In this document: positions 28,364-29,558 of the stretch, piece after piece
Position numbering within the stretch: position 1 is the stretch's first letter
Layout of the letters: the number at the start of each line of letters is the position of its first letter
Virus record (IMG/VR): IMGVR_UViG_2541047842_000006
DNA: 47,623 nucleotides
Direction: 5' to 3' (one strand)
Source of the DNA: a virus
Lineage: Duplodnaviria > Heunggongvirae > Uroviricota > Caudoviricetes
Translations under genes and position numbers: made by a program
Notes under the pieces: model-generated
Seen by the model: only the letters and a program-made list of their open reading frames with translations
Told to the model about the DNA's origin: nothing
Database searches by the model: none

Positions 28364-29558
28364 GGAAGGTGCGAACAAGTCCCTGATATGAGATCATGTT
28401 TGTCATCTGGAGCCATGGAACAGGGTTCATCATGAGTCATCAACTTACCTTCGCCGACAGTGAATTCAGCAGTAAGCGCCGTCAGACCAGAAAAGAGATT
28501 TTCTTGTCCCGCATGGAGCAGATTCTGCCATGGCAAAACATGGTGGAAGTCATCGAGCCGTTTTACCCCAAGGCTGGTAATGGCCGGCGACCTTATCCGC
28601 TGGAAACCATGCTACGCATTCACTGCATGCAGCATTGGTACAACCTGAGCGATGGCGCGATGGAAGATGCTCTGTACGAAATCGCCTCCATGCGTCTGTT
28701 TGCCCGGTTATCCCTGGATAGCGCCTTGCCTGACCGCACCACCATCATGAATTTCCGCCACCTGCTGGAGCAGCATCAACTGGCCCGCCAATTGTTCAAG
28801 ACCATCAATCGCTGGCTGGCCGAAGCAGGCGTCATGATGACTCAAGGCACCTTGGTCGATGCCACCATCATTGAGGCACCCAGCTCGACCAAGAACAAAG
28901 AGCAGCAACGCGATCCGGAGATGCATCAGACCAAGAAAGGCAATCAGTGGCACTTTGGCATGAAGGCCCACATTGGTGTCGATGCCAAGAGTGGCCTGAC
29001 CCACAGCCTGGTCACCACCGCGGCCAACGAGCATGACCTCAATCAGCTGGGTAATCTGCTGCATGGAGAGGAGCAATTTGTCTCAGCCGATGCCGGCTAC
29101 CAAGGGGCGCCACAGCGCGAGGAGCTGGCCGAGGTGGATGTGGACTGGCTGATCGCCGAGCGCCCCGGCAAGGTAAGAACCTTGAAACAGCATCCACGCA
29201 AGAACAAAACGGCCATCAACATCGAATCCATGAAAGCCAGCATCCGGGCCAAGGTGGAGCACCCATTTCGCATCATCAAGCGACAGTTCGGCTTCGTGAA
29301 AGCCAGATACAAGGGGTTGCTGAAAAACGATAACCAACTGGCGATGTTATTCACGCTGGCCAACCTGTTTCGGGCGGACCAAATGATACGTCAGTGGGAG
29401 AGATCTCACTAAAAACTGGGGATAACGCCTTAAATGGCGAAGAAACGGTCTAAATAGGCTGATTCAAGGCATTTACGGGAGAAAAAATCGGCTCAAACAT
29501 GAAGAAATGAAATGACTGAGTCAGCCGAGAAGAATTTCCCCGCTTATTCGCACCTTCC
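28364..29558 (+). mobile_element. IS5 insertion sequence, complete (1195 bp) with 4-bp TTAG target-site duplications
   Basis: terminal inverted repeats GGAAGGTGCGAACAAG (28364..) and CTTATTCGCACCTTCC (..29558); TTAG at 28360..28363 and 29559..29562; length 1195 bp. Confidence 0.95.
28432..29412 (+). CDS. insH: IS5 transposase InsH
   Basis: 326 aa from [18 protein letters not shown]...; recalled match to IS5 InsH. Confidence 0.95.

Follow-up and report, generated by a model that had tools for sequence, protein, structure and literature searches.

Does an insertion sequence (IS) lying between the lysis genes and the terminase and head genes of a lambdoid prophage prevent packaging, or is it tolerated on the late transcript? 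The question is raised by the window, i.e., the whole 47,623-nt stretch of viral DNA analysed here (Caudoviricetes; IMG/VR record IMGVR_UViG_2541047842_000006), in which a copy of IS5 sits in the late operon. A preliminary description, made from the sequence, had concluded that the prophage may be packaging-defective in spite of intact structural genes. Our analysis bears out the anatomy behind that proposal, with a lambda-type late promoter and IS5 on the path of late transcription, however, the step from anatomy to a packaging defect loses its footing once the weakness of the only hairpin in IS5, the terminators native to the late path, the position of cos, the genome size and precedents in other phages are considered. 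Judged from the sequence and from analogy with related phages, the prophage probably still makes particles despite IS5, and a packaging defect is unlikely.

The host element is an mEp460/Qin-type lambdoid prophage at ydfJ-rspB. Gene annotation was carried over by coordinate offset from IS-free copies of the locus in 118UI, GN05505 and EH01-18-04-A, and gives the minus-strand order Q, cspB, essD, ydfR, rrrQ, rzpQ, cspI, ymcF/ynfQ, ynfR, ynfN, gnsB, a ybcW-like ORF, the terminases, head and tail, while cspF, ynfU and a DUF1398 gene (ydfO/ybcV-like) occupy the opposite strand. Q (33560–34312) encodes a ydfT/quuQ-like antiterminator of 250 aa that matches PF03589 (E = 7.7e-55), the Q-lambda family (PMC9388147). 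It is followed on the same strand by cspB (32410–32625), by the lysis genes for the holin EssD (S; 31441–31656), the endolysin RrrQ (R; 30595–31128) and the spanin RzpQ (Rz; 30101–30598), the last of these being the final lysis gene upstream of IS5, and, beyond the insertion, by ymcF/ynfQ (28127–28315), ynfR (28059–28124), ynfN (27824–28054), gnsB (27479–27652), the ybcW-like ORF (26410–26616) and the genes for the small (DUF1441; 25353–25847) and large (700 aa; 23251–25353) terminase subunits. The co-oriented minus-strand block of lysis genes, cos, terminase, head and tail extends from 31656 down to about 3300. The proposed location of IS5 in the late operon is thereby confirmed, as it lies between Rz and the small terminase gene, both on the minus strand.

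The element is a complete, 1,195-bp copy of IS5 at 28364–29558, and the coordinates first given for it are exact. Its left terminal inverted repeat, GGAAGGTGCGAACAAG (16 bp, 28364–28379), and its right one, CTTATTCGCACCTTCC (16 bp, 29543–29558), which is the end first entered by late transcription, are flanked by direct 4-bp copies of TTAG at 28360–28363 and 29559–29562. The transposase gene ins5A (28432–29412, plus strand; 326 aa) is intact and encodes a DDE transposase with matches to PF01609 (E = 5.7e-35) and PF05598; a longer alternative ORF of 338 aa starts at 28396. The transposase strand is thus plus, antisense to the late operon. Identity amounts to 99.75% with IS5 of a K-12 derivative, 100% with one copy in GN05505 and 99.6–99.7% with the annotated IS5 of P1 and of 434B, compared with 91–94% for the sister element ISKpn26; the element is therefore IS5 proper. 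A length of about 1.2 kb, imperfect 16-bp inverted repeats, a 4-bp target duplication and a single long DDE transposase ORF all agree with the IS5 group. IS5 prefers YTAR target sites, and the TTAG used in cspI is of this type according to the generally known consensus.

In one respect the preliminary description has to be corrected: IS5 was placed 3' of an intact cspI, whereas translation of the locus and the frame restored on removal of the element place it within cspI itself. The cspI reading frame starts at 29737 on the minus strand and is split after codon 60. It continues for 108 nt into IS5 and stops at 29450, and the resulting 95-aa chimera (29450–29737) consists of CspI residues 1–60 and 35 IS5-derived residues. 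The last 10 codons and the stop codon, mapped from the IS-free GN05505 locus, are left as an orphaned 3' remnant at 28326–28363, the first 4 bases of which (upstream side) are the left TTAG copy. Removal of IS5 and one TTAG in silico restores a 70-aa CspI. In the chimera the Pfam match covers only positions 1–56 of the 66 in the cold-shock profile, and the last 10 residues of the approximately 66-residue domain are replaced by IS5-derived sequence. The 5' leader of cspI (29738–29883) is recognized by the Rfam cspA-thermoregulator model, the match of which spans 29510–29883 with its 3' part cut by IS5, and scores 95.7 bits compared with 158.8 bits at the intact cspB. CspI is thus truncated at residue 60, loses the last strand of its cold-shock domain and is inactivated. 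In this genome cspI should be annotated as a pseudogene (cspI::IS5). The gene is a non-essential cold-shock accessory gene (moron) between the lysis cassette and cos, and E. coli possesses several redundant cold-shock proteins.

Once IS5 and one TTAG are deleted, the locus agrees at 2801 of 2801 positions with its IS-free counterpart in three other genomes, and the rest of the window, 46.4 kb, reaches the bit scores of perfect matches when compared with the IS-free prophages of more than 10 genomes; the IS-free prophages in other genomes are those of E. coli. Neither the left nor the right cspI::IS5 junction occurs in the 5,426 complete genomes searched, where at most 57% of the left junction is covered. 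The exact empty site together with junctions present in 0 of 5,426 genomes indicates that the insertion is simple, very recent and private to this strain. By its sequence the element would be an active IS5 copy that recently transposed into a TTAG inside cspI. Several apparent matches dissolved on inspection: two matches that seem to span the whole right junction are split ones to nearby ISKpn26 copies, other matches of seemingly full coverage are due to an IS5 copy (H1) or to ISKpn26 copies at other nearby positions, and GN05505, which looked like an exact match by its equal span length, carries its IS5 elsewhere in the prophage, between DUF4209 and DUF977 genes.

The preliminary description had late transcription start at about 33500 on the minus strand, and at the level of sequence this agrees well with a lambda-type pR' (33485–33529, minus strand) located just downstream of Q by alignment to the lambda promoter. 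It comprises a −35-like TTTGCA (33529–33524), the −10 element TAAAAT (33505–33500) and the pause motif AACGAT (33493–33488) followed by GGG. In the alignment, TAAAAT, a 6-nt spacer and AACGATGGG (33493–33485) face TAAATT, a 6-nt spacer and AACGATGGG in lambda, so that AACGAT, the sigma-dependent pause element, stands at the same spacing as in lambda. In keeping with established lambdoid biology, a single late transcript of about 30 kb would start here, pass the lysis genes, the accessory tract and cos, and continue into the genes for terminase, head and tail. It can reach these last genes only by crossing IS5.

What the polymerase encounters in IS5 is modest when set beside what it encounters elsewhere on the same path. 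A terminator scan combined with folding energies found no strong intrinsic terminator within IS5 on the late strand. The one terminator-like site there (29526–29514) has a 5-bp stem, a 3-nt loop and an interrupted T-tract, and a dG of −4.3 kcal/mol. The native path holds a tR'-like intrinsic terminator with a T-tract some 40–70 nt downstream of the pR' start (33431–33454, minus strand; −22.1 kcal/mol), the cspB terminator upstream of the holin gene (32109–32128, minus strand; −12.8 kcal/mol), the gnsB terminator between IS5 and the terminase genes (27431–27452, minus strand; −11.0 kcal/mol), and, near cos on the late strand, a hairpin with a T-tract (−11.5 kcal/mol). Two of these, the cspB and gnsB terminators, could be compared with the isolated phage Tritos, and both are base-identical there. 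Terminators native to the late path, two of them identical in Tritos, suggest that read-through is a normal need of this type of phage. IS5 also adds about 1.1 kb of probably untranslated late RNA, from 29450 to 28315; native stretches of untranslated late-strand RNA measure about 1.8 kb between pR' and S, where cspB is the sole ORF, and about 860 nt between the gnsB stop and the next late-strand ORF. The excess of C over G on the late strand of IS5 is mild, and appears in the 100-nt windows at 29401–29501 and 29201. For Rho-dependent termination, sequence is not a reliable predictor. Once loaded with Q, elongation complexes are described as processively insensitive to pause and termination sites, for thousands to tens of thousands of nucleotides (PMC9388147). 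A literature search for IS5 polarity under Q antitermination, or for its dependence on Rho, returned nothing relevant.

Two precedents bear on particle production with a foreign insert in the late operon, and serve as analogies, as their inserts are other than IS5. In lambda cI857 bor::kanR, as in the present prophage, the foreign DNA lies in an accessory gene directly after Rz and before cos on the pR' transcript (bor is located 1.75 kb before the right cos end), and induction yields about 1e10 PFU/ml (PMC11379933); the insert is, however, an engineered resistance cassette and not an IS, and the phage is lambda itself. The same bor::kan marker is carried by lambda900 of the Young laboratory. 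The second case is that of Stx2a phages of the PST1-1 type from O157:H7, where 13 genomes carry a 1.3-kb IS629 downstream of stx2 and the lysozyme gene lies beyond IS629, near 28,390 (PMC4587872). The genomes of these phages were assembled from DNase-treated, PEG-precipitated induced supernatants, in which stx2a phages overall reached 117–573x coverage (PMC4587872). They resemble the present case in that a natural IS lies inside a Q-dependent late operon, and differ from it in IS family, in the type of Q and phage, in the position of the IS upstream of the lysis genes, and in that the evidence is DNA recovery rather than infectivity. The Sakai 'defective prophage pool' paper offered no usable example in which a late operon contains an IS. 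IS629 is a member of the IS3 family.

Packaging further demands a cos site and a genome that fits the capsid. Aligned to the window, the linear Tritos genome has its ends at 26033/26034; this point falls in a G+C-rich region (26010–26060) and precedes the small terminase gene by about 187 bp, an arrangement shared with lambda; the start of the mEp460 record maps to window position 25872, about 160 bp off, and the placement of cos is accordingly approximate. The lambda cohesive-end sequence GGGCGGCGACCT matches the window only at chance level (3 matches, 3.2 expected). About 2.3 kb separate cos from IS5, and cos is untouched. A candidate att core of 11 bp, GAAATCCATAA, occurs at 1276 and again slightly outside the window, where the equivalent position is 47661; measured from this core, the prophage is 46,385 bp long when IS5 is counted and 45,186 bp when it is not, an increase of 2.7%. 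Isolated phages with head genes at least 95.7% identical have genomes of 42.3–47.0 kb, among them Tritos with 46,360 bp and the cdtI phage with 47,021 bp. As 46.4 kb lies within the range of these relatives, size is not limiting for packaging.

All large ORFs of the prophage are open, and its identical IS-free copies have intact annotations for the integrase, excisionase, Q, lysis, terminase, head and tail genes. Close relatives are known as isolated phages, i.e., HannyBb, mEp460 and Tritos. In pairwise comparison, mEp460_ev081 covers 94% of the structural region at 97.9% identity and HannyBb 82% of the early region at 97.9% identity; taken together, these two phages cover 80–82% of the early region at 96–98% and match the structural region at 95.6–97.9% identity. 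Tritos and PhiR42_1 are 98–99% identical to the region from Q to cos.

The same accessory tract has been hit repeatedly in other strains, where IS5-family, IS3, IS1 and IS200 elements are found independently between Q and cos, some of them at deletion junctions. The ISKpn26 insertions in NCTC10444, STEC383, MSI001 and OW1E2 are independent events of the IS5 family within 1–2 kb of the present site; they differ in the element and in position, and are mostly accompanied by adjacent deletions, whereas cspI::IS5 is not. The deletion at an IS5-family element in NCTC10444 has removed gnsB, ynfN and ynfR and, on its flanks, portions of the DUF1398 gene and of ymcF, and in OW1E2 and MSI001 the whole morphogenesis region is missing at an IS5-family junction, leaving Qin-like remnants. 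Qin of K-12 itself occupies the same ydfJ-rspB site with the same set of Q, cspB/cspF, essD-ydfR-rrrQ-rzpQ and cspI-ynfN-gnsB-ydfO, however, its terminase, head and tail genes are lost, while the prophage in the window keeps all of them, 100% identical to copies in many genomes. With one IS, no deletion and otherwise the same sequence as the IS-free copies, the locus represents the earliest stage of prophage decay.

As a whole, the account that we favor, and hold to be fairly likely from the sequence, combines a recent transposition of IS5 into cspI with polarity on the cspI operon in the lysogen, and with late read-through and packaging after induction. Downstream of cspI, ymcF, ynfR and ynfN follow at gaps of 10, 2 and 4 bp, and no terminator-like site was found on the late strand between cspI and ynfN. 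This close packing without a terminator makes it likely that ymcF-ynfR-ynfN are co-transcribed with cspI and exposed to polarity of IS5. In the uninduced lysogen, a polymerase from the cspI promoter, which is not modified by Q, would probably terminate in the 1.1-kb untranslated IS5 RNA, and such termination would lower ymcF-ynfR-ynfN expression. After induction, a Q-modified polymerase starting at pR' (about 33493) would read through IS5 as it does through the native terminators of tR', cspB and gnsB; expression of the terminase, head and tail genes would persist, cos (about 26034) would still be cut, and the 46.4-kb genome should still fit the capsid. IS5 in addition provides the prophage with homology to the many other chromosomal IS5 copies, a known route to the deletions of Qin-type remnants.

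A direct challenge to late read-through would be a strong polar effect of IS5 on late transcription, such that lysis proteins are made and terminase, head and tail proteins are too scarce, resulting in lysis without packaging. The location of IS5 between Rz and the terminase genes on a single late transcript, the untranslated RNA that follows the chimeric CspI stop and the presence of a terminator-like hairpin on the late strand are what such a model would draw on, however, that hairpin is set against native structures of −11 to −22 kcal/mol, including the cspB and gnsB terminators shared with Tritos, Q-loaded polymerase is processively resistant to terminators (PMC9388147), and the lambda bor::kan phage and the IS629 Stx2a phages yield particles despite inserts in the late operon, which together render strong polarity distinctly unlikely. 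An intermediate version, in which IS5 acts as a valve of partial polarity that keeps lysis and lets few virions form, and in which IS5-family insertions in the accessory tract downstream of Q are a recurrent, possibly selected, first step toward Qin-type remnants, we regard as very unlikely. The prophage might be non-productive for causes unrelated to IS5, such as regulation, replication or host factors, with the insertion irrelevant to packaging. The early region is indeed in part poorly annotated, with a 339-aa ORF without Pfam match, a DUF977 gene and a YdaT-like gene, and many prophages of the mEp460/Qin family are undergoing IS-driven degradation; against this stand the open reading frames, the intact annotation of the key genes in identical IS-free copies and the close match of the early and structural regions to HannyBb and mEp460_ev081, both isolated phages, and we rate this possibility as unlikely.

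Two further explanations concern the origin of the allele rather than its effect. Domestication, i.e., selection of the insertion because loss of CspI, altered expression of ymcF-ynfN-gnsB or a damped virion output helps the host, would fit the independent arrival of several IS families in this tract, some at junctions of morphogenesis deletions, but the allele is private to one genome with no spread seen, several cold-shock proteins of E. coli are redundant with CspI, and a TTAG conforming to the YTAR preference lets chance suffice; this renders selection highly improbable. That the junctions are an artefact of assembly, with an IS5 copy misplaced by its repeats, has some basis in repeat abundance, since related genomes carry IS5 at about 17–22 places; a misjoin would not, however, yield the TTAG duplication, the complete inverted repeats and flanks from which no base is lost, and an artefact is thus extremely improbable.

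Transposition into cspI with packaging largely unaffected, the reading that we prefer, has a practical consequence: IS5 alone is no ground for scoring the prophage as defective. A known element is seen with known behavior in a known prophage family, and the event is of an already known kind; its significance beyond annotation is little. Together with the identical IS-free prophages elsewhere, such as those of S1-CAM-04-C and 118UI, the locus provides a convenient natural isogenic pair for assessing the tolerance of a Q-antiterminated transcript to an IS.

Among the closest parallels is nmpC::IS5 in DLP12 of K-12 and in phage 434B (OL657227.1), the record of which is a complete phage genome. 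There, too, IS5 has used a TTAG target within a lambdoid late region, where it interrupts an accessory gene, and its orientation is likewise that of cspI::IS5: the transposase gene runs antisense to the late genes, and the late strand enters via the GGAAGGTGCGAATAAG end; unlike cspI::IS5, however, the insertion lies between Q and S rather than between Rz and cos. We considered 434B as a precedent for read-through and dropped it, because its late promoter may lie downstream of its IS5: the vicinity of Q in 434B yielded no promoter-like site, and a TATAAT box is located just upstream of S, with a strong terminator about 190–200 nt later. In the Qin-like phage genome PhiR42_1 (48.7 kb), a two-ORF transposase element is found between the replication genes and Q.

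The tract from cspI to ydfO, where the IS5 copy of the window interrupts cspI, has been struck independently by ISKpn26, a sister element of the IS5 family, in the copies carried by NCTC10444, MSI001, OW1E2 and STEC383 (loci L003–L006). Deletions adjoin most of these ISKpn26 copies, and in OW1E2 and MSI001 the entire terminase-to-tail region has been lost; IS3-family elements in the Rz or holin gene are also present in STEC383 and OW1E2. Judged from these sequences, prophage decay seems to set out repeatedly from the cspI-to-ydfO tract.

Elsewhere in this prophage family, individual copies have private IS insertions of their own, each different. 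In GN05505, which has an IS-free cspI, an IS5 identical to that of the window lies between the DUF4209 and DUF977 genes (L007, local 14325–15519), and in EH01-18-04-A an IS200C lies between ynfU and cspB (L008, local positions about 7500–8000), likewise on the route of the Q-dependent late transcript. The K-12 derivative Z226-5 has an IS5 between the same two genes, ynfU and cspB (L002, local 11684–12878).

Insertions also occur in genomes of isolated phages. Phage 434B (OL657227.1) carries IS5 at 3862–5056 of locus L009, inserted in an nmpC-like porin gene that lies between Q and S. Both the TTAG target and the orientation with respect to the late genes agree with those of the IS5 of the window; the notes of the 434B record suggest that the region bearing it derives from DLP12. 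Directly upstream of S in 434B there is a TATAAT box, followed about 190–200 nt later by a strong terminator. PhiR42_1 (PV340562.1), a Qin-like phage genome of 48.7 kb with ECOR13 as the recorded host and with relBE, hokD and flxA among its genes, has a two-ORF transposase element between the replication genes and Q (L011, local 11567–12880).

Compared with the window, the related phage Tritos lacks about 258 bp matching 33129–33386, the cspF-proximal part of the region from pR' to cspB; its absence from Tritos shows that the late leader can do without this stretch. Further along the late path, a minus-strand hairpin at 25951–25978 (10-bp stem followed by a T-tract, −11.5 kcal/mol), located between the mapped cos and the start of the small terminase gene, could be either a cosB-region structure or a further terminator.

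The 11-bp sequence at 1276–1286, GAAATCCATAA, is a candidate att core and overlaps the beginning of truncated ydfJ. Its second copy, seen in GN05505, lies 38 bp past the integrase stop, and the right-hand att site falls just beyond 47623, outside the window; the candidate pair therefore gives a prophage of 46,385 bp.

The gene at 37020–38807 (plus strand), which opposes the direction of the early-right operon, encodes a 595-aa DUF7380/DUF4209 protein. With E = 8e-103 the product is a match to PDC-S39, one of PADLOC's candidate defence families, so the prophage may carry an accessory gene for anti-phage defence here. Rfam hits in the window that exceed the gathering score include, on the minus strand, IS009 sRNA (3342–3540, within the region of the tail-fibre-assembly gene), the cspB thermoregulator, which is of the cspA type (32394–32786), and sok antitoxin RNA (36340–36514, adjoining hokD), and, on the plus strand, DicF sRNA (42817–42868).
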